Assembly (NCBI GenBank): GCA_043801155.1
Contig: JAZDMI010000021.1
Coordinates: 130,683-194,682, forward strand
Length of the DNA: 64,000 nucleotides
From: Candidatus Gottesmanbacteria bacterium
GTDB lineage: Bacteria > Patescibacteriota > Microgenomatia > JAMCYU01
Direction of reading: 5' to 3'
In this document: piece after piece, positions 1-60,115 of the stretch
Numbering within the stretch: position 1 is the stretch's first letter
How the letters are laid out: each line of letters begins with the position of its first letter
Notes under the pieces: generated by a model
What the model saw: only the letters and a program-made list of their open reading frames with translations
What the model was told of the DNA's origin: nothing
Database searches by the model: none
Program-made: the position numbers and the translations under genes

Positions 1-936
1 GAATTTAAAAGAGATGTTCGGGGTGAGAAAGATCTGGGACCTCAAGATGAAATGGATATCGGTAAGTGGGCTTTGAAAAATTATCAAAGCGACTTAGTTA
101 CGATTACTCATTTCCCAACGAAAAAAAGAGCTTTCTATACCATGCCGGATCCCCAGGATCCGGAATATAGTTTAAGTTATGATCTTTTATTCCGGGGCTT
201 GGAGATTTTAAGCGGCAGCCAAAGAATTAATGATTATGATGAGTTAGTGAAAGCGATTAGTGATCGAGGTATGGACCCTAAAAATTTTGCAATGTATTTA
301 ATGGCTTTTAAATATGGTATGCCTCCGGAAGGTGGATTTTCTTTTGGCCTTGAGCGGATGACAAAAAATATTCTAAACTTAGAAAATATCCGTCAGGCTA
401 GTCTTTTCCCCAGGGATATGGAAAGAGTGGATATGAGATTAAGTCAAGACACTACATCGTCATTGCGAGCGAAGCGAAGCAATCTCTACGACGAAATAAT
501 TTCTCTTTTGGATTCTAACAACATTAAATATGAGACATTTGAACATCAGCCGGTTTTTACTTCAGAAGAGGCAGCAAAAATCCGTGGTACCAAGCTTTCT
601 CAAGGTGCCAAAGCCCTAATAATGATCGGAGATAAAAATCCCATAATGGTAGTTTTGCCGGCTGATAGAAAAGCAGATTTTAAGAAAATAAAATCTTCTC
701 TTGAAATAAAGAACTTAGAGATGGCAACTCCTGAAGATGTTAAAGAAGTAAGTGGAGTAGAAATCGGAGCAGTACCACCATTTGGTAATTTACTGGGTAT
801 TCCCCTCTACGTAGATATTCATCTAAAAGGAGAGAAAGAAATTGTTTTTAATGCCGGGTTGCATACTAAATCAATAAAGATGAAATGTGATGATTTTGAA
901 AAGGTAACGAGTCCTATTATTGGTGATTATTCCTAA
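1..936 (+). CDS. Class II aminoacyl-tRNA synthetase (AspRS/AsnRS type, archaeal-like C-terminus) fused in-frame to a YbaK/ProX-like aminoacyl-tRNA deacylase domain; 5' partial (the frame is open from base 1)
   Basis: The ORF has no stop back to base 1. Class IIb C-terminal motifs are present (DPKNFAMYLMAFKYGMPPEGGFSFGLERM...LFPRD..RL). After the embedded repeat comes a YbaK-like module (IISLLDSNNIKYETFEHQPVFTSEEAA...GAVPPFGN...). Confidence 0.7.
   Translation, partial: EFKRDVRGEKDLGPQDEMDIGKWALKNYQSDLVTITHFPTKKRAFYTMPDPQDPEYSLSYDLLFRGLEILSGSQRINDYDELVKAISDRGMDPKNFAMYLMAFKYGMPPEGGFSFGLERMTKNILNLENIRQASLFPRDMERVDMRLSQDTTSSLRAKRSNLYDEIISLLDSNNIKYETFEHQPVFTSEEAAKIRGTKLSQGAKALIMIGDKNPIMVVLPADRKADFKKIKSSLEIKNLEMATPEDVKEVSGVEIGAVPPFGNLLGIPLYVDIHLKGEKEIVFNAGLHTKSIKMKCDDFEKVTSPIIGDYS
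458..485 (+). repeat. Family-1 repeat, short form (CGTCATTGCGAGCGAAGCGAAGCAATCT), embedded in-frame in the aaRS-YbaK ORF and translated as SSLRAKRSNLY
   Basis: Near-identical copy of 4519-4547. It contains the hairpin ATTGC-N12-GCAAT. Confidence 0.85.
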
Positions 937-953
937 GATTTCATTATTGTTTA

Positions 954-990
954 AGATTGCTTCGTCACTTCGTTCCTCGCAATGACGAAG
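954..990 (-). repeat. Family-1 repeat, long form in inverted orientation (reverse complement CTTCGTCATTGCGAGGAACGAAGTGACGAAGCAATCT), 18 nt after the stop of the fused aaRS-YbaK gene
   Basis: The reverse complement shares GTCATTGCGAG...GAAGCAATCT with copies 458-485 and 4519-4547, and has the same long-form architecture as 4858-4892. Confidence 0.8.
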
Positions 991-2990: not shown

Positions 2991-3066
2991 CCTTCGACAA
3001 GCTCAGGATGAATAGATCCTGGGCAGATAGATTGAGTATAGCATTAGCCTGTGTTAGAATTCAATC

Positions 3067-4509
3067 ATGACTGTTCGAACCCGCATTGCTCCATCGCCGA
3101 CAGGCGAAGATTTACACATTGGGAATGTCTATACTGCCCTGATTAATTTTATCTTTGCTAAACAAAATCAAGGAAAGTTCATCATTAGGATTGAAGATAC
3201 CGATCAGACCCGGTTAGTATCCGGTTCAGAAAATAAGATATTAGACTCTCTTTGTTGGTTGGGATTAGCTTATGATGAAGGACCGGATATCGGAGGCCCC
3301 TATGCTCCTTATCGTCAATCAGACAGGTTAAAATTATATAAACAATATGCTCAAGAACTGGTTAAAGTTGGCGCAGCTTATCATTGTTTTTGTACGCCGC
3401 AAATTTTAGAAAAGATGCACCAGGATCAGTTTAGCAAAAATCTTCCTCCTCGATATGATCAGCGTTGTCGACATCTAAATAACGAAGAGATACAAAAAAG
3501 ACTCAAAAACGGCGACCCCCATGTTATTCGGCTTAAGGTTCCGCAAGCCGGCCAAACAAGATTTACTGATTTAATCAGAGGGGAGATTGTTTTCGAAAAT
3601 GGTTTAATTGATGATCAAGTGCTTCTGAAATCAGATGGTTTTCCAACTTATCACTTAGGAGTAGTAGTCGATGACCACCTAATGGAAATCAGTCACGTAA
3701 TCAGAGCTGAAGAATGGATTTCGTCAACCCCCAAACATATTCTTATTTATAAAGCCTTTGGTTGGGATATACCTTTTTTTGCTCATACTCCATTGCTTCG
3801 TAACCCGGACCACGCAAAGCTTTCAAAGCGCAAAAATCCAGTTTGGCTTTCTTGGTATAAAGAACAGGGATATTTACCAGAGGCGATTTTAAACTATTTA
3901 GCCTTAATGGGTTGGGCGTATCCTAAGGGCAAAGAAATATTTTCCTTAGATGAGCTGACAAAAGCATTCAAACTTGAAAAGATTCAGACAACCGGACCGG
4001 TTTTTGATTTAACAAAACTAGAATGGCTCAACGGATCATATATAAGACAAAAAACACCTAACGAATTAATGGATTTATTATTGTCCTATTCTACCGCTAT
4101 GGTCATACAAAAAACGCCACCGGAAAAGCTTAAACAAATTATAACTCTTATTCAGGACAGAATGAGGAAACTGGCAGACTTTAAAGAGCTAACTGATTTT
4201 TTCTTTAATAAGCCAACCGTTGACTTAGAATTGCTATTGGCTGGGAAATCAAAAGAAGATATAGAAAAAGTTTTAGGGATGACCATATTCCGGTTTGAAA
4301 AAATAAATGAATGGACCGTTAAAAAAATTGAACAGGAAACATTGGGGGCAGTATCAGAAACCGGATTTAAAACTGGTGATTACTTTATGATTATAAGAGT
4401 AGCCATAACAGGTTTGTCTGCCACTCCACCAATTAATGAAACGATGGAAATTTTAGGCAAAGATGAAACAATAGATCGTCTGAAAACAGCACTTGGGAAA
4501 ATAAAGTAA
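3067..4509 (+). CDS. gltX: Glutamyl-tRNA synthetase
   Basis: HIGH motif (PSPTGEDLHIGN) and KMSKS-type motif (KLSKRK). Confidence 0.9.
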   Translation: MTVRTRIAPSPTGEDLHIGNVYTALINFIFAKQNQGKFIIRIEDTDQTRLVSGSENKILDSLCWLGLAYDEGPDIGGPYAPYRQSDRLKLYKQYAQELVKVGAAYHCFCTPQILEKMHQDQFSKNLPPRYDQRCRHLNNEEIQKRLKNGDPHVIRLKVPQAGQTRFTDLIRGEIVFENGLIDDQVLLKSDGFPTYHLGVVVDDHLMEISHVIRAEEWISSTPKHILIYKAFGWDIPFFAHTPLLRNPDHAKLSKRKNPVWLSWYKEQGYLPEAILNYLALMGWAYPKGKEIFSLDELTKAFKLEKIQTTGPVFDLTKLEWLNGSYIRQKTPNELMDLLLSYSTAMVIQKTPPEKLKQIITLIQDRMRKLADFKELTDFFFNKPTVDLELLLAGKSKEDIEKVLGMTIFRFEKINEWTVKKIEQETLGAVSETGFKTGDYFMIIRVAITGLSATPPINETMEILGKDETIDRLKTALGKIK

Positions 4510-4518
4510 AGATAATTT

Positions 4519-4547
4519 CCGTCATTGCGAGCGAAGCGAAGCAATCT
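4519..4547 (+). repeat. Family-1 repeat, short form, immediately upstream of the GIY-YIG gene
   Basis: CCGTCATTGCGAGCGAAGCGAAGCAATCT; essentially identical to 458-485. Confidence 0.85.
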
Positions 4548-4561
4548 CGTCAAATAGTCTA

Positions 4562-4858
4562 ATGAGAAATAGGCAATCGTTTGTTTATATAGCAACAAAC
4601 AAGTTTAATTCTGTCTTGTATACAGGTGTAACCGGTGATTTAATAAAGCGTGGCTACGAACATAAAATAGGAGTAGTTTCTGGATTTACATCAAAATACA
4701 AAATTCACAAACTGGTATATTACGAAATATTTGACGATATAAGCGAAGCGATAAAAAGAGAGAAACAAATTAAGGATGGGTCTAGAAAGAAGAAAATAGA
4801 ACTGGTTATGAAAATGAATCCGGAGTTTAGAGATTTATATGAGGATATTGTTAAATAA
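4562..4858 (+). CDS. GIY-YIG nuclease family protein (small, stand-alone)
   Basis: FVYIATNKFNSVLYTGVTGDLIKRGYEH...YYE...EAIKREKQIK; typical ~95-aa GIY-YIG/UPF0213 architecture. Confidence 0.85.
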   Translation: MRNRQSFVYIATNKFNSVLYTGVTGDLIKRGYEHKIGVVSGFTSKYKIHKLVYYEIFDDISEAIKREKQIKDGSRKKKIELVMKMNPEFRDLYEDIVK

Positions 4859-4892
4859 GATTGCTTCGTCATTTTCGTTCCTCGCAATGACG
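4858..4892 (-). repeat. Family-1 repeat, long form inverted, overlapping the GIY-YIG stop codon
   Basis: Reverse complement CGTCATTGCGAGGAACGAAAATGACGAAGCAATCT; partner of 4519-4547. Confidence 0.8.
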
Positions 4893-11792: not shown

Positions 11793-13061
11793 TTGGCGTT
11801 GACAAATTTTATGTTAGATATACAAAAAATAAAACAGGACTTTCCTATCCTAAAAAGACAGATAAATGGAAAACAAATTGTCTATCTTGATTCCGGTGCG
11901 TCTTCCTTAAAGCCTTGTCAGGTAATTGAGGCGATGGATAAATATTATATAAATTATGGAGTGAATATCTTTCGTGGTATTTATCGACTATCGCAGGAGG
12001 CAACCGAAGAATATGAAAAGGCCCGTCAAAATGTGGCTAAATTTATTGGAGCAAAAGATCCAAGAGAAATAATTTTTGTCAGAAACGCCACTGAAGCTAT
12101 CAACTTAGTGGCTTATGCTTGGGGAAGAGCAAATATTGACGTGAGGAGTGAAATTGTTTGTACGGTTATGGAACATCATGCTAACTTGGTGACCTGGCAA
12201 CAGCTGGCACTGAAAAACAGTGCCACCATAAAATTTTTGGATATTGATGAAAATGGAAAACTAAAAATCAATCGCCATCAGGAAATAAATCTCGATAGCG
12301 TGATAACAGACAACACAAAACTATTAGCAATTACTTATGTCTCTAATGTTTTAGGAACAATAAATCCGCTTAAAGAAATTGTGAGAAAAACCAAAAAGAT
12401 TAACCCTAATTGTTTGGTTTTAGTTGATGGAGCACAAGCAATACCCCATATGAAAGTTGATGTTGAAGATTTAGGTTGCGATTTTTTTGCCTTTTCCGGA
12501 CACAAAATGCTCGGACCGATGGGAATTGGTGTTCTTTGGGGTAAATATGAATTATTAGATAAAATGCTGCCGTTCCAATTTGGGGGAGAAATGATTAGGG
12601 ATGTTTATCTGGAAAAAACGACCTTTGCTGATCCGCCACATAAATTTGAAGCGGGGACCCCCAATGTAGCTGGGGCTATCGGTTTGTCTGCTGCCATTGA
12701 TTATCTAGAGGGATTTGGTATGGAGAATATAAGACAACACGAGGTTGAAATAACAGAATACGGTTTAAATCAATTGAGCAATATAAAAGATTTGAAAATT
12801 TACGGTCCAGAAAAAGTAGAAGACCGGGGCGGAATTATTGCTTTTAATATTGATGGTATTCATGCTCATGATTTAGCCCAAATATTAGACGAGGACAATG
12901 TTTGTATCAGAAGTGGCCATCACTGTGCCATGCCATTGCATACCCGTTTGGGAATTCCCGGATCTGCCCGCGCCAGTTTTTATCTCTACAATACTAAGGA
13001 AGATATTGATAAATTAGTAGAAAGTTTAAAAAAAGCTAAAAAGATATTTAAAATATTATGA
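11793..13061 (+). CDS. sufS: Cysteine desulfurase SufS (PLP-dependent, class V aminotransferase fold)
   Basis: PLP-Lys motif SGHKMLGP and active-site Cys in RSGHHCA. Confidence 0.9.
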   Translation: MALTNFMLDIQKIKQDFPILKRQINGKQIVYLDSGASSLKPCQVIEAMDKYYINYGVNIFRGIYRLSQEATEEYEKARQNVAKFIGAKDPREIIFVRNATEAINLVAYAWGRANIDVRSEIVCTVMEHHANLVTWQQLALKNSATIKFLDIDENGKLKINRHQEINLDSVITDNTKLLAITYVSNVLGTINPLKEIVRKTKKINPNCLVLVDGAQAIPHMKVDVEDLGCDFFAFSGHKMLGPMGIGVLWGKYELLDKMLPFQFGGEMIRDVYLEKTTFADPPHKFEAGTPNVAGAIGLSAAIDYLEGFGMENIRQHEVEITEYGLNQLSNIKDLKIYGPEKVEDRGGIIAFNIDGIHAHDLAQILDEDNVCIRSGHHCAMPLHTRLGIPGSARASFYLYNTKEDIDKLVESLKKAKKIFKIL

Positions 13062-13090
13062 AATTGACTTTAAAATTAATACAATAAATC

Positions 13091-13226
13091 GGGCTGGCGG
13101 TAACGAATTTTTTCACCCCGCTTTGTCAAAGTTAAATTGTTGTTTAGTGCATTAGCACGAAGTTTTACACTTTGGAAAGACAGAATCATAAGTGCGGGGT
13201 TGTCAAAAATTGTTACGCGCCATCCC
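13091..13226 (+). repeat. Family-2 ~138-bp element with terminal inverted repeats (MITE-like), copy 1, located between sufS and sufU
   Basis: Aligns end-to-end with 21791-21928 and 26506-26643. The conserved core is GAATTTTTTCACyCC...AGTGCAyTAGCACGAAG...GyGGAGyTGTCAAAAATT...CGCGCCATCCC. Confidence 0.8.
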
Positions 13227-13244
13227 TTATTTTGCACTTTTATC

Positions 13245-13628
13245 ATGGATATTTATCGACAAAATATTTTAGATCATTATAAAAATCCGCGCAACTTTGG
13301 CCCTATGGAAAAACCTGATTCCTCACATGAGGAAGGTAATACTTTATGTGGAGATAAAATTAAAATAGAAATAAAATATAAATTAAAACCTGATAACGAA
13401 AAAACTATTGATGATATAAAATTTACCGGTGAAGGATGTGCTATTTCTTTGGCTAGTGCCTCTATGTTAACAGAGAAAGTTAAAGGAATGACTATAGAAG
13501 ATATTAAGAAATTGAGATATGATGATATTAAAGAAATGTTAGGAACGGATTTAAGTCCAGCTAGAATAAAATGTGCAACATTGGCCCTGCAAGTTTTACT
13601 TAAAACTATTGATCATTTAATATTGTGA
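13245..13628 (+). CDS. sufU: SufU/IscU-like Fe-S scaffold (the ORF-track start at 13137 is extended into the repeat; the start proposed here is at MDIYRQ)
   Basis: Three-Cys scaffold motifs (LCGD, GEGCAIS, KCATLA). The upstream 108 nt of the tracked ORF are repeat sequence. Confidence 0.75.
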   Translation: MDIYRQNILDHYKNPRNFGPMEKPDSSHEEGNTLCGDKIKIEIKYKLKPDNEKTIDDIKFTGEGCAISLASASMLTEKVKGMTIEDIKKLRYDDIKEMLGTDLSPARIKCATLALQVLLKTIDHLIL

Positions 13629-13664
13629 ATTGTTTCATTCCTTTATCTTGTATATAATTAATTT

Positions 13665-15371
13665 ATGTCAAAAAGCATGACTTGGAGAATTGGGGGAGAA
13701 GCGGGATTTGGAATTATGGCTTCCGGAGCTATTTTTGCTAAGGCTTTAACCAGAGCCGGGCTTTTTATTTCTTCAACAGTTGAATATCCTTCGCTTATCC
13801 GTGGCGGACACAATACATATATCGTTAGAGCAGGAGAAACAGAAATTTTTTCATTAGTTAAGCCAATTGATCTTTTAGTCGCCCTGAACCAAGAAACAAT
13901 TGATTTACATAAAGGTGAGTTATCCAAAGGTGCCGGTATTATTTATGATTCTCAGGACAAAACTATCATAACAGAAAATTTACCGGAAGAATGTAAATTG
14001 TTTGGTTTGCCGCTTTTAGAAATTGCTACTAAAGACGGCGGTAAAAAAATTATGATGAATAATGTGGCTTTGGGGGCAACCTGGGCTGTCGTTGATTTGC
14101 CATTTGAAATATTAAGCAGTGTCATTGCTGATAATTTTGCTAAAAAGGGAGAAGAAATTATCAAAGAAAATACCCAAGCTGCCAAGTCCGGATTTGAATA
14201 TATTAAGAATAACTATGCCAATGATTTTACTTATAAACTCGTTAGAGGAAAAGCAGCCGGAAGATTGGTATTAACTGGTAATGAAGCAATCGGACTGGCT
14301 GCTATTAAAGCAGGTTTAGGTTTTACTGCACTCTATCCGATGACACCGATTAACGGTTTGTTGCTTTACTTAGCTTCTCATCAACAAGAAGGAAATTATA
14401 TTTATTATCAACCAGAAGATGAGATAGCCGGAATTAATTCAGCGATAGGGGCATCATATTCGGGAAAACGCAGCTTAATAGCTACATCAGGTGGCGGTTT
14501 TGCTTTAATGAACGAAGGGTATGGTATGGCCGCTATGACCGAAACGCCACTCGTTGTAGTTATGGGTACAAGACCGGGTCCATCAAGCGGTTTACCAACA
14601 TGGACAGGTCAGGGAGATCTTAAGTTTCTCTTAAATGCTTCACCAGGTGATTTTATGAGGGTTATATTTGCACCTGGTGATCCAACCGAAGCTTATGAAT
14701 TAACTCAAATAGCGTTTAACCTAGCCGATAAATATCAAACACCGGTGATTCTTTTAGTTGATAAATTTTTATGTGAAAGCATCGGCACAGCGGATAAATT
14801 AAAAATTAAGAATTATGAATTAAAAATTGATCGGGGAAAAATGTGGGACAAAAAGGGAGAATACAAAAGATATGAATTAACTGATGATGGAATATCGCCG
14901 CGGGCACTCCCCGGACAATCTTACTTTATAACTAATTCTTATGAGCATGATGAATTTGGGTATTCAACTGAAGATGCAAAAACCATTCAGTCAATGGTTG
15001 ATAAACGCGGGAAAAAATATGAACTTTTAGCCAAAGAAGTCCCCGAACCACAAATTTTTGGTGATAAAGACGCTGACATTACTTTGGTTGGTTGGGGATC
15101 AACCAAGAACGCGGCGCGTGAAGTAGTAGGTAAAAAAATAAATTATTTGCACCTTAATTGGATAAATCCATTTCCGAAAGAGGTGGTGACCAGAATTTTA
15201 TCAAAAGCGAAAAAAGTTATTGATATTGAGGGAAATTCGACTGGTCAGATGGCCGCCTGGATAAGAGAACAAACCGGTATTGAAATTAAAGATAAAATAT
15301 TAAAATATGACGGCCGGCAATTTTATCCAGAGGATATTATTGAAGGAATAAAAAATTTACTTGGAAAATAA
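13665..15371 (+). CDS. korA: 2-oxoacid:ferredoxin oxidoreductase, alpha subunit (fused gamma-alpha type)
   Basis: POR/KOR alpha-subunit architecture (GNEAIGLAAIKAG..., TSGGGFALM), followed by the TPP-binding beta subunit. Confidence 0.8.
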   Translation: MSKSMTWRIGGEAGFGIMASGAIFAKALTRAGLFISSTVEYPSLIRGGHNTYIVRAGETEIFSLVKPIDLLVALNQETIDLHKGELSKGAGIIYDSQDKTIITENLPEECKLFGLPLLEIATKDGGKKIMMNNVALGATWAVVDLPFEILSSVIADNFAKKGEEIIKENTQAAKSGFEYIKNNYANDFTYKLVRGKAAGRLVLTGNEAIGLAAIKAGLGFTALYPMTPINGLLLYLASHQQEGNYIYYQPEDEIAGINSAIGASYSGKRSLIATSGGGFALMNEGYGMAAMTETPLVVVMGTRPGPSSGLPTWTGQGDLKFLLNASPGDFMRVIFAPGDPTEAYELTQIAFNLADKYQTPVILLVDKFLCESIGTADKLKIKNYELKIDRGKMWDKKGEYKRYELTDDGISPRALPGQSYFITNSYEHDEFGYSTEDAKTIQSMVDKRGKKYELLAKEVPEPQIFGDKDADITLVGWGSTKNAAREVVGKKINYLHLNWINPFPKEVVTRILSKAKKVIDIEGNSTGQMAAWIREQTGIEIKDKILKYDGRQFYPEDIIEGIKNLLGK

Positions 15372-21081: not shown

Positions 21082-21194
21082 AACTACATATTCCGCGCTT
21101 CAAAATCCCGAGCTTCCGCTAGCTGGCGGAGCGAGCGTGAATTGAAGCAAGGAAAAAGGAATATGTGGACTTATTTTACTCTATATTTTTCTTC

Positions 21195-21780: not shown

Positions 21781-21790
21781 TTTTTATAGA

Positions 21791-21928
21791 GGCTGTTGGC
21801 TACGAATTTTTTCACTCCACACTGTCTTCGAGTAGGTTATTGTTTTGGTGCACTAGCACGAAGACCATTCGATTATAATGTAATTGCCAAAAATGTGGAG
21901 CTGTCAAAAATTATAGCACAACATCCTC
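21791..21928 (+). repeat. Family-2 ~138-bp TIR element, copy 2 (intergenic, greA-lysK)
   Basis: Aligns with copies 1 and 3. Confidence 0.8.
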
Positions 21929-21962
21929 AATAGATATAAGTTTGATTAATGACTTTTAATGT

Positions 21963-21999: not shown

Positions 22000-23529
22000 A
22001 TGTATTGGGCTGATAAAATTGCGCAAGAATTTAAAAAGAGACACCTTCCGCTTGAGTGGGTTGATGATATGAAAACGCCTTCGGGGTTTGCCCACATGGG
22101 TTCTCTTCGGGGTCCGGTTACTCATAGTTTAGTTTATCGAGCATTACAGGATGTAGGTCTGAAAGTAAAATTTACCTTTGTCATTAACGATTTTGACCCT
22201 GCTGATGAACTTCCACCGGAATTTAAAGAAACATTAAAAGATTATCTTGGTTTCCCCTTACGGAAAGTTCCCAGTCCCAATAAAAAGTATGATAGTCTTG
22301 GTAGTCTGATTGCTCAGGATTTTATAACATCCTTTAGAACTTTAGGCGTCGAGGCGGAAATATTATCATCTTGGGATATGTATCATCAGGGGAAATTTGA
22401 CAATGTTATAAAAATTGCCCTTGATAATTCAGGGAAAATCCAAGATATTTATCGTCAAGTCAGCGGAAGCCAAAAAAAGGAAAGCGGATGGTTGCCTTTT
22501 CAGGTAGTTTGTCAAAAATGCGGTAAGCTAGGAACAACCAAAGTTACCGACTGGGATGGCAAAGAAGTGACTTATGAATGTTTACCTGACTTAGTTAAAT
22601 GGGCAAGCGGCTGCGGATATAAGGGAAAAGTTTCTCCGTTTGGCGGTTCAGGTAAATTACCCTGGAAAGTTGATTGGCCAGCCCATTGGAAGGTGATCGG
22701 TGTGACTTGTGAGGGAGCCGGTAAAGATCATGGATCAGCCGGAGGTTCTTATGATATTGCTTTAAAGCTTTGTGATAAAGTTTTTAAATATCCCAGTCCT
22801 TTTAAATTTGTTTATGAATTTTTTCTGCTTGGTGGCCAAAAAATGTCTTCTTCAAAAGGAATAGGATTTAAAGCTCATGACTTAATTGGAATATTACCTC
22901 CTAATGTGGCTCGATTTTTATTTGTTAGAACTGATTATCAACAGGCAATTAATTTTAATCCTGATGGGTATACGATTCCTAATTTATTTGATGAATATGA
23001 TCGTTGTGCTAAAGAATTTTTTGCCAAAGGCCGAAAGTCAGATTTCGGTAGAAGTTATGAACTTTCCCAAACTAATCCAAAACAACCGGAAAAATTTGTT
23101 GATATTCGTTTTCGCCAAATTGCTCAGTTGATACAGATGCCTAATATGGCAGGTAAAATAAAGAATAACCCACAGCTTGTAGAAAGAGCAAAATATGCAA
23201 AGATATGGCTTGAAAATTTCGCTCCTGAAAGTGAAAAATTCAGCATTAAAAATGATTTACCAAATGAAGTAAAAAAACTGAATCAAACCCAAAAGCTTCT
23301 TTTAAAAAGAATCACTGCTGAAATTGATAAAAAATGGGAAGCAGAAGATTTTCAAAAGGAAATATATAATTGGGGAAAAGAATTAGGATTATCCTCCGGA
23401 GAAACTTTTCAAACTATTTATCTTTCTCTTATCGGTAAAGATCATGGTCCCAAAGCTGCGTGGTTGATATTATCTTTGGATAAAGAATTTGTAAAAACAA
23501 GATTTGAAGAAGTAGCTAATCAAAAATGA
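22000..23529 (+). CDS. lysK: Lysyl-tRNA synthetase, class I (archaeal-type LysK)
   Basis: Class I-type motif region (PSGFAHMGSLRG) and the characteristic KMSSSKG motif. Confidence 0.7.
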   Translation: MYWADKIAQEFKKRHLPLEWVDDMKTPSGFAHMGSLRGPVTHSLVYRALQDVGLKVKFTFVINDFDPADELPPEFKETLKDYLGFPLRKVPSPNKKYDSLGSLIAQDFITSFRTLGVEAEILSSWDMYHQGKFDNVIKIALDNSGKIQDIYRQVSGSQKKESGWLPFQVVCQKCGKLGTTKVTDWDGKEVTYECLPDLVKWASGCGYKGKVSPFGGSGKLPWKVDWPAHWKVIGVTCEGAGKDHGSAGGSYDIALKLCDKVFKYPSPFKFVYEFFLLGGQKMSSSKGIGFKAHDLIGILPPNVARFLFVRTDYQQAINFNPDGYTIPNLFDEYDRCAKEFFAKGRKSDFGRSYELSQTNPKQPEKFVDIRFRQIAQLIQMPNMAGKIKNNPQLVERAKYAKIWLENFAPESEKFSIKNDLPNEVKKLNQTQKLLLKRITAEIDKKWEAEDFQKEIYNWGKELGLSSGETFQTIYLSLIGKDHGPKAAWLILSLDKEFVKTRFEEVANQK

Positions 23530-24440: not shown

Positions 24441-25051
24441 AACGTCTTCTTATTGCCACCACAAATCCTGGTAAACTCACAGAAATCAAATTTTTTCTGA
24501 AGGAAATACCCATAAAACTAGTCAGTCTTACCGATTTAGGAATAAAAGATAAGGTTGAGGAAGATGGAAAGACTTTCGAAGAAAATGCTAGAAAGAAAGC
24601 AATTTATTATTGTAAGATTTCCGGAATACCAACTATTGCCGACGACGGGGGATTAGAAATCGATTATTTAAACGGTGAACCGGGAGTAAAATCTCACCGA
24701 TGGATTGATAATAAAGTAAATTCAGACGAGGAGTTAATAAAATATACTTTGGAAAAATTAAAAGGATTACCGTTTGATAAACGGGGGGCACAACTGCGTA
24801 CTGTTATCGCGTTAACCATTCCCAATGGGTCTACCTTTATCAGTGAAAGTATTATTAGAGGTGTAATTTCTGAAAAAGCAGCATCATTTCGAACCCCGGG
24901 TTTTCCTTATCGTTCTCTACTTTACTTGCCCGAGTCAGGAAAATTTTATCACCAGGACGATTTAACAGAAGAAGAAAATATAAAATATAACCACCGAGGT
25001 AAAGCCCTTAGGAAATTAAAAAGAATTATTAAAGAAAAAGTGTTAAAATAA
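24437..25051 (+). CDS. rdgB: Non-canonical purine NTP pyrophosphatase (RdgB/Ham1, ITPase)
   Basis: ATTNPGKLTE and DDGGLEIDYLNGEPGVKSHRW motifs. Confidence 0.8.
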   Translation: MKRLLIATTNPGKLTEIKFFLKEIPIKLVSLTDLGIKDKVEEDGKTFEENARKKAIYYCKISGIPTIADDGGLEIDYLNGEPGVKSHRWIDNKVNSDEELIKYTLEKLKGLPFDKRGAQLRTVIALTIPNGSTFISESIIRGVISEKAASFRTPGFPYRSLLYLPESGKFYHQDDLTEEENIKYNHRGKALRKLKRIIKEKVLK

Positions 25052-25126
25052 GTCCAGGTATTCCTTTTTTCTTGCCTCATTCAAGCCTGATTGTGAATCA
25101 GGCGTTCTGAGGGGCGAAATAAAAAA

Positions 25127-26362: not shown

Positions 26363-27104
26363 AACTCTTATTAAGATAAATTCTCCGATTAATGGCGAAA
26401 TTTCTGTTATTGAACAATTCGGGAAAAGAAAAATTATGGTTGGTGGTTTAACACAATCTGGTCCTATGGCAGAAAAAATCTGGGAAGACGCTATAAAAGA
26501 AATATGGGCTGGCGGTGATGAATTTTTTCACTCCACGTTGTCAGGTTGTGAACCAGAGACTAGTGCACTAGCACGAAGACAATCTTTACCCAGAGACATT
26601 GCCATAAGGAGTGGAGCTGTCAAAAATTATCACGCGCCATCCCAAGGAAATAAAATACTACTTTTGGGAGTTGGGGGAGGATCTTTAGTTAAATTACTTA
26701 ATAAATATTTCCCAGATGCAAAAGTTATTGGTGTAGAAATAGATTCACTAATGATTAATTTAGGAAAAAAATATTTGGAATTAGAAAAGGCAAAAAATTT
26801 TGAAATTATTATTGACGATGCAGAAAACTATGTGCAGTCCTCTATAAACTATAAGCAAAATTTCGATTTAATTTTTGTTGATATGTACAAAGGAGATAAA
26901 GTTCCAGAGAATTTGGAAAATATAAATTTTTTACAAAATTTAAAAAATATTTTATCAATAAATGGCCTAGTTATTTTTAATCGTCTGTACTATAAAAATC
27001 ACATTTTTGAAGCAAATATTTTTCTTGACAAATTGAAGAAAATATTTAATGATTTAAGATGTAAAAAGATTTACACAAATATTTTCTTATATTGTAAAAA
27101 ATAA
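26328..27104 (+). CDS. Spermidine-synthase-like class I SAM-dependent methyltransferase carrying a 46-codon in-frame repeat insertion
   Basis: Rossmann motif I LLLGVGGGS...VIGVEID. A family-2 repeat lies in-frame between the N-terminal domain and the MTase fold. Confidence 0.55.
   Translation: MNISDLKKFLPKTLIKINSPINGEISVIEQFGKRKIMVGGLTQSGPMAEKIWEDAIKEIWAGGDEFFHSTLSGCEPETSALARRQSLPRDIAIRSGAVKNYHAPSQGNKILLLGVGGGSLVKLLNKYFPDAKVIGVEIDSLMINLGKKYLELEKAKNFEIIIDDAENYVQSSINYKQNFDLIFVDMYKGDKVPENLENINFLQNLKNILSINGLVIFNRLYYKNHIFEANIFLDKLKKIFNDLRCKKIYTNIFLYCKK
26506..26643 (+). repeat. Family-2 ~138-bp TIR element, copy 3, inserted in-frame inside a CDS
   Basis: Aligns with copies 1 and 2. Translated stop-free as ...AGGDEFFHSTLSGCEPETSALARRQSLPRDIAIRSGAVKNYHAPSQ. 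Confidence 0.8.
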
Positions 27105-55413: not shown

Positions 55414-55912
55414 TAAGGGTTTTTCTCTAATTGAACTGTTGGTAGCAATGGCGATTATTAGCAGCTTATCTCTTTTGACCGTGCATCTCCTATACGGTAC
55501 CGTAGCTACCAGAGCTAAACAATATTCGATCGAGGGAGCAAATGATAATATGCGCTTGTTGATGAGCAATATCACTAAAGAAATCCAAAATGCCAACATA
55601 GTATCTATTGATAATTATTATACGTTGAAATTAACTGGCGATATTTGCCGGACAATTATATGGAATCGGGTCGACCAGATTAAAGAAGCTGTTGATAAGG
55701 CAAATCCCTGTCTACCACCGGCTGAGACTTCTACGGATTTTTTTCCAATCAGCAAGGACCAAATTACCATTAATAAAGTTGAATTTTCATCACTGCCGGC
55801 GACCGGTCAGCCCAAAATAATAACCATTAAAATTAGTGGAATATATAACGATAATTTTGGGAGTCACCCGGTTAATCTGGAGACATCAGTAACGCCAAGA
55901 GTTGTCTTTTAA
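55388..55912 (+). CDS. Prepilin-type protein (minor pilin)
   Basis: KG/FSLIELLVAM with Glu at +5. Confidence 0.65.
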   Translation: MKVMLRHTNKGFSLIELLVAMAIISSLSLLTVHLLYGTVATRAKQYSIEGANDNMRLLMSNITKEIQNANIVSIDNYYTLKLTGDICRTIIWNRVDQIKEAVDKANPCLPPAETSTDFFPISKDQITINKVEFSSLPATGQPKIITIKISGIYNDNFGSHPVNLETSVTPRVVF

Positions 55913-59575: not shown

Positions 59576-60115
59576 ATGGATTTAAATAAAAAACATATAG
59601 ATGTTAAAGGATTTACCCTAATTGAACTTTTATTGGTGATTGTGGTTATCGGAGTGCTGGCCACCGTCGGTTTATCAATATTAAATCCTCAGGAAATGAA
59701 CCGCAAAGCCAGAGACAGTAGAAGACTATCAGACTTAGGGATGCTGCGTCGATCACTGGACATGAGCATGTCTGATGGAAATAAGTTACCGAACACTAAT
59801 AAGAATCCTGTAGTGATTGATTCATCAATGAGCCCGTCCACTTTTGGGGGCGGGCTTGGTATAGATATCAGTAAATATATACCATCAATACCTCAAGATC
59901 CTTCATATAGCTCGGGTGGAGATCTCCAAATTGCCAAAGGAGATTGTATTACAGGTACAGCTACCAGTACGATGCAATATGAATTCTCAAGCAACGGGAC
60001 GACGTATATCCTTAGATCTCGTTTGGAATCAGTAAGTAATTGCCGTTTACTATCTGATGATGGTAATAATGATGATTATTATGAATTAGGGACTCAACCT
60101 GGCTTGAAATGGTAA
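59576..60115 (+). CDS. pilA: Type IV major pilin
   Basis: Leader MDLNKKHIDVKG / FTLIELLLVIVVIGVLA with Glu5, and a C-terminal Cys pair (C..C). Confidence 0.75.
   Translation: MDLNKKHIDVKGFTLIELLLVIVVIGVLATVGLSILNPQEMNRKARDSRRLSDLGMLRRSLDMSMSDGNKLPNTNKNPVVIDSSMSPSTFGGGLGIDISKYIPSIPQDPSYSSGGDLQIAKGDCITGTATSTMQYEFSSNGTTYILRSRLESVSNCRLLSDDGNNDDYYELGTQPGLKW

Follow-up and report, generated by a model that had tools for sequence, protein, structure and literature searches.

Positions 4520-4892 of the 64 kb stretch of Candidatus Gottesmanbacteria DNA analyzed here (the window; G+C content about 36%) hold a gene for a small GIY-YIG nuclease between two inverted copies of a hairpin repeat. We interpret this arrangement, with a probability of about 0.8, as an SRM-ssn-SRM unit, that is, a nuclease gene of the Ssn family lying between two inverted copies of its cognate repeat, the Ssn-related motif (SRM). 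A second pair of the same repeats surrounds a YbaK domain fused to a non-discriminating aspartyl-tRNA synthetase (AspRS). The features of both pairs are listed in Table 1. Loci from other genomes are designated by L and a number.

Table 1. Repeats and genes of the two SRM pairs (window coordinates)
Feature	Position	Strand	Basis or remark
Short SRM in AspRS-YbaK linker, CGTCATTGCGAGCGAAGCGAAGCAATCTC	458..486	+	translated in frame as linker SSLRAKRSNL between AspRS and YbaK
YbaK/tRNA_edit domain, fused to AspRS	487..936	+	Pfam PF04073, E=3.5e-31
Long SRM after YbaK, CGTCATTGCGAGGAACGAAGTGACGAAGCAATCTT	about 953..987	-	just upstream of S11 peptidase gene
Left SRM of ssn unit, short form, CGTCATTGCGAGCGAAGCGAAGCAATCTC, 29 nt	4520..4548	+	pattern match and conserved flanks
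ssn, 98-aa single-domain GIY-YIG nuclease of the Ssn family	4562..4858	+	Pfam PF01541, E=2e-13
Right SRM of ssn unit, long form, CGTCATTGCGAGGAACGAAAATGACGAAGCAATCTT	4857..4892	-	overlaps ssn TAA stop by 2 nt

The ssn gene and its flanking repeats

Ssn proteins were described by Chenal et al. (2025, Nat Commun 16:2388; PMC11893778) as single-domain GIY-YIG proteins of about 94 aa (CDD cd10448). They bind a hairpin repeat only as single-stranded DNA and cut a few nucleotides (nt) 5' of it; no activity of SsnA was seen on double-stranded DNA or RNA, and Neisseria SsnA does not bind RNA. The repeat was named NTS in Neisseria (CGTCATTCCCGCGMAVGCGGGAATCYRG) and SRM generally. In Neisseria, the GTC preceding the palindrome is critical for cleavage and the C following it is critical for binding. 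Of the ssn homologues surveyed, 71% had an SRM next to one or both of their ends and 42% had SRMs next to both, and Rickettsia was one of the SRM-rich genera (PMC11893778). The core arrangement, a GIY-YIG gene bracketed by cognate hairpin repeats, is therefore one already published in 2025.

The PF01541 match covers residues 6-78 of the window protein, in which Pfam found no other domain. The protein is 42% identical over 93 residues to the 94-aa SsnA orthologue of N. gonorrhoeae (BLASTP, E=6e-29), and a tblastn search of gonococcal chromosomes with it gave E=3e-17. This comparator, which is not N. meningitidis SsnA itself, was recognised by its length, by residues Y6, Y17 and E64, and by its flanking NTS repeats; nine repeats matching the published SRM pattern surround its gene. 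(The two complete N. gonorrhoeae chromosomes concerned, of 2.17 Mb, are filed as plasmids in PLSDB; the locus used, L204, is NZ_CP119140.1 1880778-1884056.) Catalytic residues Y9, Y20 and E67 of the window protein align with Y6, Y17 and E64 of SsnA and are invariant in 35 relatives of 95-98 aa, miscalled N-termini being set aside. Judged by its sequence, the window protein belongs to the Ssn family, since its E-value lies well past the E<1e-10 used for membership (PMC11893778) and the catalytic residues are kept. No NCBIfam model matched the protein. A PDB search returned no Ssn structure and only marginal UPF0213/YhbQ relatives (1zg2, E=0.0011; 1ywl, E=0.045); these are its only solved relatives, of the same size and fold family but of a different subfamily. 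No second ssn-like gene was found in the window by tblastn.

The repeat has the core GTCATTGCGAG-variable-GAAGCAATC and was searched for with the family-specific pattern CATTGCGAG-N(4-30)-GCAATC. This pattern has four matches in the window, at 461-484(+), 955-984(-), 4523-4546(+) and 4859-4889(-), and none of 100 shuffled sequences gave four. The four copies form two convergent pairs, one around ssn and one around the YbaK domain. Both pairs, each with a short left and a long right repeat, had been recognised in the original prediction from the sequence and were recovered at the positions in Table 1. The left repeat does precede the gene, but ends 13 nt before the ssn ATG and not 14 nt, the latter value being obtained by counting from 4519. 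The right repeat overlaps the TAA stop (4856-4858), as had been noticed, because the conserved tail of the repeat reads AAGATTGC. The two short copies are identical to each other and to the copy upstream of ssn in the related locus L205. In the long variant the six central bases of the short form are replaced by GAACGAAGTGAC or GAACGAAAATGAC; the two long copies of the window differ by one substitution and one 1-nt indel. A generic hairpin scan of the window revealed no copies beyond these four. Rfam covariance models run over the whole window yielded only two tRNAs at the gathering score and left the repeats unmatched, and promoter and terminator scans called nothing at the repeats, which lack a T-tract.

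Folded as single-stranded DNA, the short SRM forms only its 5-bp outer stem, whereas the long SRM adopts an alternative hairpin, TCGTCATT/AATGACGA (TTCGTCAyT/ArTGACGAAG), with a z-score of about -3.5, in which the GTC is buried. This modelled difference could make the two ends of the unit functionally unequal. It had also been proposed that the ends pair with each other to enclose the gene in an RNA stem. A terminal stem is indeed present in the minimum-free-energy structure of the whole unit folded as single-stranded DNA (z=-2.6), as is expected of any terminal inverted repeat, but a role as an RNA stem is not borne out, given that Neisseria SsnA does not bind RNA.

Association of repeat and gene across genomes

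A scan with one genome per species yielded 80 loci with 81 homologous genes (relatives 54-72% identical) from Patescibacteria, Cyanobacteria, Chloroflexota, Omnitrophota, Proteobacteria, Bacteroidota, Planctomycetota and other phyla. The flanks of these homologues carry the same primary sequence, GTCATTGCGAG-variable-GAAGCAATC. A repeat lies at most 60 nt from the gene in 73 of the 81 homologues; a forward copy is present upstream in 49, with a median distance of about 14 nt to the start codon, and a reverse copy downstream in 55, often touching the stop. Both copies together, in the layout of the window, flank 43 of the 81, and the units measure 357-429 nt from end to end. These figures uphold the earlier view that the repeats are not random REP-like hairpins. 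The centre of the repeat is variable and often a G+C-rich stem-loop. Its commonest version, GCGAAGCGA (51 occurrences), is that of the short form in the window and contains GCGAAGC, a sequence that forms an unusually stable DNA mini-hairpin.

Two further expectations from the window failed in this set. The short-left/long-right asymmetry, which had been taken for defined termini, was not general across 43 units (22 versus 17; Wilcoxon p=0.64). Target-site duplications, which had been proposed as a check for mobility, were absent: none of at least 2 nt was found at the borders of 44 units. In 33 of these 44 the inverted repeat reaches one base further outward (Y...R). Phage records gave only 11 weak partial matches, in Rhizobium phages, and the family is thus nearly absent from phages.

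Several individual loci deserve mention. L011 (4995-5717) contains a second ssn gene at a distance of 426 nt from the first, and the flanks of the two are identical on both sides, which indicates a tandem duplication of the whole SRM-ssn-SRM unit. In L001, L004, L006, L010, L025, L038 and L068, a TATAAT box follows the left SRM and precedes the start codon by about 7-12 nt, and the repeat-arm sequence TTGCGA lies about 18 nt upstream of that box; the short left repeat may also serve as the promoter of an ssn mRNA with almost no leader. A good TATAAT box is missing from the unit in the window. In cyanobacterial homologues (L002, L005, L019, L030, L057, L066, L072 and L075) no repeat precedes the gene and two follow it, the forward copy first and the reverse copy second. 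They are often merged with HIP1-like GCGATCGC, and some copies are shortened to GTCATTGCGA and joined directly to a reverse copy. The ssn homologue of L063 is flanked by repeats of the type GTCATCCTGAG...GAAGGATCTC, and other stem variants occur in L008 and L018.

The repeat is also found apart from the gene. Only four of 120 metagenome loci recovered by a scan for the repeat encode an ssn-like gene, and the dominant arrangement of neighbouring repeats in them is the convergent doublet with a spacer of 6-35 nt (94 of 215 pairs). At greater distances the picture is different: across 200 loci, 47 of the 54 convergent pairs that lie 100-1500 nt apart have ssn inside. The other seven enclose ordinary host genes, such as those for a response regulator or a dehydratase-like protein, and are fewer than the pairs in any other orientation class (19-27). 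Isolated 5' arms occur about 12 times more often than expected by chance, and are heterogeneous and uninformative on mechanism. The expectation that copies occur as oriented pairs around small genes thus held in part, in that the copies are paired, oriented and tied to the GIY-YIG gene, but most pairs enclose nothing. The repeat family would then propagate mostly as gene-less convergent doublets, as REPINs do relative to RAYT genes, with a different enzyme. In L183 (3910-5049) minus and plus SRM copies alternate in about nine tandem units with a period of about 121 nt, an arrangement like the BIME/NIME arrays formed by REP and dRS3 repeats.

The window locus resembles the published system in several respects. 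Its protein is of matching size (~94-98 aa), has a single GIY-YIG domain and keeps the Tyr/Tyr/Glu residues, and hairpin repeats of 20-50 nt lie on both sides of the gene and also elsewhere in the genome. In addition, the repeat shares a CGTCATT...AATC frame with NTS, including the GTC 5' and the C 3' of the palindrome. The locus differs in the stem of the repeat, where ATTGC/GCAAT and a GCGAAGC-type core replace ATTCCCGC/GCGGGAAT, in its host, a bacterium of the candidate phyla radiation, in its low copy number and in having one repeat translated inside a gene. The main text of the survey names neither Patescibacteria nor Cyanobacteria (PMC11893778), and its degenerate pattern, HGTCWYN(0-2)YYVSBRHN(0-5)WNVSBRGN(0-2)RNCYNB, is a search tool built from 29 genomes and not a definition of the family. 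The subclass of repeats found in the window was probably under-counted there.

Related Gottesmanbacteria and the YbaK pair

The block aspS, S11 peptidase gene, 351-aa gene (minus strand) and gltX was recovered in six other genomes by means of relatives of AspRS and of glutamyl-tRNA synthetase (GluRS). Identities of 55-73% for the S11 peptidase, the 351-aa protein and GluRS group the window closely with L205 and L206, and L202 and L201 are outgroups. Two sites in this block vary. The junction between aspS and the S11 peptidase gene contains nothing in L202 and L208, and an aspS-ybaK fusion without repeat in L206 and L210. In the window it contains the fusion and two repeats, one within the linker and one past the stop, and in L205, which has no YbaK there, a left repeat, ssn and a right repeat. 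The aspS gene of L205 reads through its left repeat, whose position and reading frame agree with those of the linker repeat in the window. The Ssn proteins of L205 and the window are 76% identical, and the housekeeping proteins 55-72%; the SRMs agree at 29/29 positions for the left copy and at 32/33 for the right copy, compared with the long copy at 953-987. Between these two genomes, the repeats are therefore more conserved than coding sequence.

The second variable site follows gltX. In the window the ssn unit and then a 119-aa open reading frame (ORF) are found, whereas in L205 the orthologous 114-aa ORF (72% identical) follows directly. The spacer in L205 keeps only a 10-nt relic, GTCATTGCGAT, located where the left repeat of the window begins, and continues with ATGAGA, as the window does after its right repeat. 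For the 10-of-11 match of this relic to the repeat arm within a 31-nt spacer, we estimate a chance expectation of about 5e-4. No unit is present after gltX in L206, L207, L208, L209 or L210, and neither ssn nor SRMs were found in the 10 kb examined of L206, L208, L209 and L210. At two syntenic sites, the gltX and the aspS slots, the ssn unit is thus present in some of these genomes and absent from others, a polymorphism of the kind that would be sought for a mobile cassette, and the differences between close relatives indicate that it has occupied different sites. The C-terminus of AspRS in L205 is only 60% identical to those of the others, which are about 85% identical to one another, and recombination or transfer may thus be involved.

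The AspRS-YbaK fusion ORF occupies positions 1-936 of the window, and the right copy of the YbaK pair lies 16-18 nt past its stop and not on it. The original prediction had viewed YbaK as alternative cargo of a mobile cassette. The YbaK domain is 68.5% identical to the fused, SRM-free YbaK of L206, in line with other proteins, and AspRS-YbaK fusions without a repeat-coded linker exist not only in L206 and L210 but also in more distant Patescibacteria. For these reasons the fusion predates the repeats, and sequence comparison identifies YbaK as an ancestral fusion partner of AspRS, host gene content and not imported cargo. A linker encoded by the hairpin repeat is found in the window genome alone. 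The state of AspRS alternates among close relatives: L206 and L210 have the fusion, L202 and L208 an unfused form, and L209 a different type of AspRS. The YbaK pair consists of two further copies of the same motifs, in the linker and 3' flank of the older fusion, at a slot that holds ssn itself in L205; it may have arisen by two separate insertions of single repeats, from an ssn unit once located at this slot, or by repeat-mediated exchange. The linker repeat resembles a 21-nt in-frame gain following a site that already was like the 5' arm of the repeat. The presence of ssn or YbaK in the same slot, the 10-nt relic after gltX and this 21-nt gain are together a hint that insertion takes place beside a GTCATTG-like target and that this target might then become the outer arm of the element. 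The translated linker recalls the Rickettsia palindromic elements, which Ogata et al. are said to have described in 2000 as inserted in frame in protein-coding genes and translated; the likeness is by description only.

Other small elements occupy this block and the rest of the window. A degenerate SRM-like sequence, TTCATCCTGAGCTTGTCGAAGGATGG, at 2992-3020(-) extends across the start codon of the 351-aa gene. This intergenic region contains a full SRM in L202 (3569-3606) and, in L206 and L210, a second, unrelated element of ~150 nt with a long closing stem, and because of this variation it appears to be a hot spot for small insertions. The 150-nt element is present in the window at 13085-13235, 21784-21936 and 26500-26652(+), and in L206 at 3808-3959(+), L207 at 783-934(+) and L210 at 4310-4461(-). 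Among only three copies, 12 of its 37 predicted pairs show compensatory double changes, and an inner hairpin, GTGCAyTAGCAC, is conserved. It had no Rfam match at the gathering score, and the copy within 13000-13700 had none at E<=1. In two relatives, a covariance model locates it upstream of gltX, with the orientation reversed between them, which points to a structured mobile element more than to a regulator of one particular gene. In addition, a 36-nt inverted repeat (89% complementary; 21143-21178 and 25044-25079, arms 3.9 kb apart) brackets greA, class-I lysS and three further ORFs.

Possible mechanism and alternative explanations

By analogy with Neisseria SsnA, the window protein would bind its repeat only in single-stranded DNA, as exposed for example during replication, DNA uptake or repair, would recognise the hairpin together with its oriented flanks (GTC 5', C 3'), and would nick a few nt 5' of the motif. 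With the convergent layout of the window, the predicted nicks would fall just outside the unit and on opposite strands. The earlier suggestion that the repeat is a substrate of the nuclease agrees with the published Ssn nucleases, which bind and cut next to such repeats (PMC11893778). Several observations weigh against the interpretation of the locus as an SRM-ssn-SRM unit. None of the four window copies matches the published SRM pattern, which the NTS consensus does match, and among the 80 homologue loci the pattern has only eight matches, none of them near the genes. The mismatch sits in the stem (TGCGAG versus YYVSBR), and the window repeat fails the pattern because its stem is ATTGC/GCAAT and not pyrimidine-rich. 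Furthermore, the window repeats are convergent, whereas the nearest NTS copies at gonococcal ssnA have the opposite orientation, minus upstream and plus downstream, indicating that the geometry relative to the nick sites is not universal. Four repeats in 64 kb is far below the density in Neisseria, so that genome-wide control of transformation is not evident here. Finally, the breakpoints of the relic in L205 fall inside the left repeat and not at the SsnA cut site.

That the repeats are ordinary intergenic hairpins, serving as terminators or stabilisers of mRNA and lying beside a GIY-YIG gene by chance, would fit their position at gene ends and the local hairpins predicted for the long form. 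This explanation has next to no probability and is refuted by the shuffled sequences, none of which reached four matches, and by the presence of the same primary sequence beside the gene in 73 of 81 homologues from many phyla; moreover, no terminator or T-tract accompanies the repeats and one copy lies inside coding sequence. More serious is the possibility that the unit is an autonomous transposon resembling an insertion sequence (IS), with Ssn as its transposase and the gene-less doublets as derivatives akin to MITEs (miniature transposable elements with inverted repeats). The terminal inverted repeats and very compact size, the occupation of different sites within one synteny block, the dominance of gene-less convergent doublets in metagenomes and the tandem duplicate in L011 all fit it, and the describers of Ssn called the NTS-ssnA-NTS architecture 'identical to' an insertion sequence, drawing also the parallel with REP and RAYT (PMC11893778). 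Presence or absence at orthologous sites, as seen for IS elements and MITEs, was found for the ssn unit, but target-site duplications were not. GIY-YIG proteins are hydrolytic nucleases, for which we know of no strand-transfer chemistry. A single ssn copy in the window, the near absence from phages, and a divergence of Ssn between the window and L205 close to that of housekeeping proteins, which fits vertical descent with occasional relocation, likewise speak against a transposon, and we regard it as rather unlikely. Domestication as a host function, which has been proposed for Neisseria, is somewhat doubtful as well: Ssn would restrict incoming or exposed single-stranded DNA at SRMs and modulate recombination, with the flanking repeats autoregulating or marking the gene and movement being incidental. 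Direct genetics in N. meningitidis support a host role of Ssn (PMC11893778), Ssn is about as conserved between relatives as housekeeping proteins, and the repeats are even more conserved than coding sequence. A type IV pilin-like N-terminal motif (GFTLIELL...), seen as a DNA motif only, occurs in three genes of the window (23103-23147, 55414-55458 and 59605-59649) and would be consistent with a pilus or DNA-uptake capacity in the lineage. Against a host function, only four SRMs, none marking a gene cluster, are present in the window, and four relatives have neither ssn nor SRMs in the 10 kb mentioned above.

The varied content of the aspS slot raises the question whether SRM pairs are boundaries of exchangeable cassettes, any content between a short left and a long right repeat being moved or swapped as a unit. 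The slot is bounded by near-identical repeats around ssn in L205 and around YbaK in the window, and L202 and L208 have neither gene at this junction. Yet repeat-free AspRS-YbaK fusions exist in L206, L210 and more distant Patescibacteria, gene-length convergent pairs hold ssn in 47 of 54 cases with the seven others under-represented relative to other orientations, and the asymmetry of the ends is not general. The mobile cassette with varied cargo of the original prediction accordingly finds no support and is very unlikely. A looser version, in which SRM pairs mark exchangeable sites and ssn, and occasionally host segments, would relocate via single-stranded nicks, as a GIY-YIG counterpart of REPIN/RAYT or of integron-like exchange, is speculative and also quite unlikely.

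With REP/REPIN-RAYT systems the SRM-ssn-SRM unit shares a single-copy nuclease-type gene flanked by inverted short hairpin repeats, the occurrence of the repeat elsewhere mainly as convergent short-spacer doublets, and presumably recognition in single-stranded DNA, but RAYTs are HUH/Y1 transposases of the IS200/IS605 type and the window protein is a GIY-YIG hydrolase. Elements of the 'peel and paste' IS200/IS605 type are likewise small, with subterminal single-stranded hairpins and no target-site duplication; their hairpins and cuts are on the same strand and their enzyme forms a covalent intermediate, whereas the repeats of the ssn unit are on opposite strands and its enzyme is of a different family. 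GIY-YIG homing endonucleases of the I-TevI type have the catalytic domain in common with Ssn and are also selfish-gene candidates with presence/absence polymorphism. The window protein differs from them in having no DNA-binding domain and no intron or intein context and in being nearly absent from phages, and Neisseria SsnA does not cut double-stranded DNA (PMC11893778).

The locus described here extends the family to bacteria of the candidate phyla radiation and reveals a subclass of repeats whose primary sequence is conserved across many phyla and which is invisible to the published pattern; for tools that cut single-stranded DNA, the clade thus provides a candidate recognition sequence of its own. 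One such repeat is tolerated in frame inside an aminoacyl-tRNA synthetase fusion protein. In six related genomes, the presence of the ssn unit, of solo repeats and of a second small element varies within one synteny block, and this series constitutes a small natural experiment that makes the mobility of SRM-ssn-SRM units directly testable.

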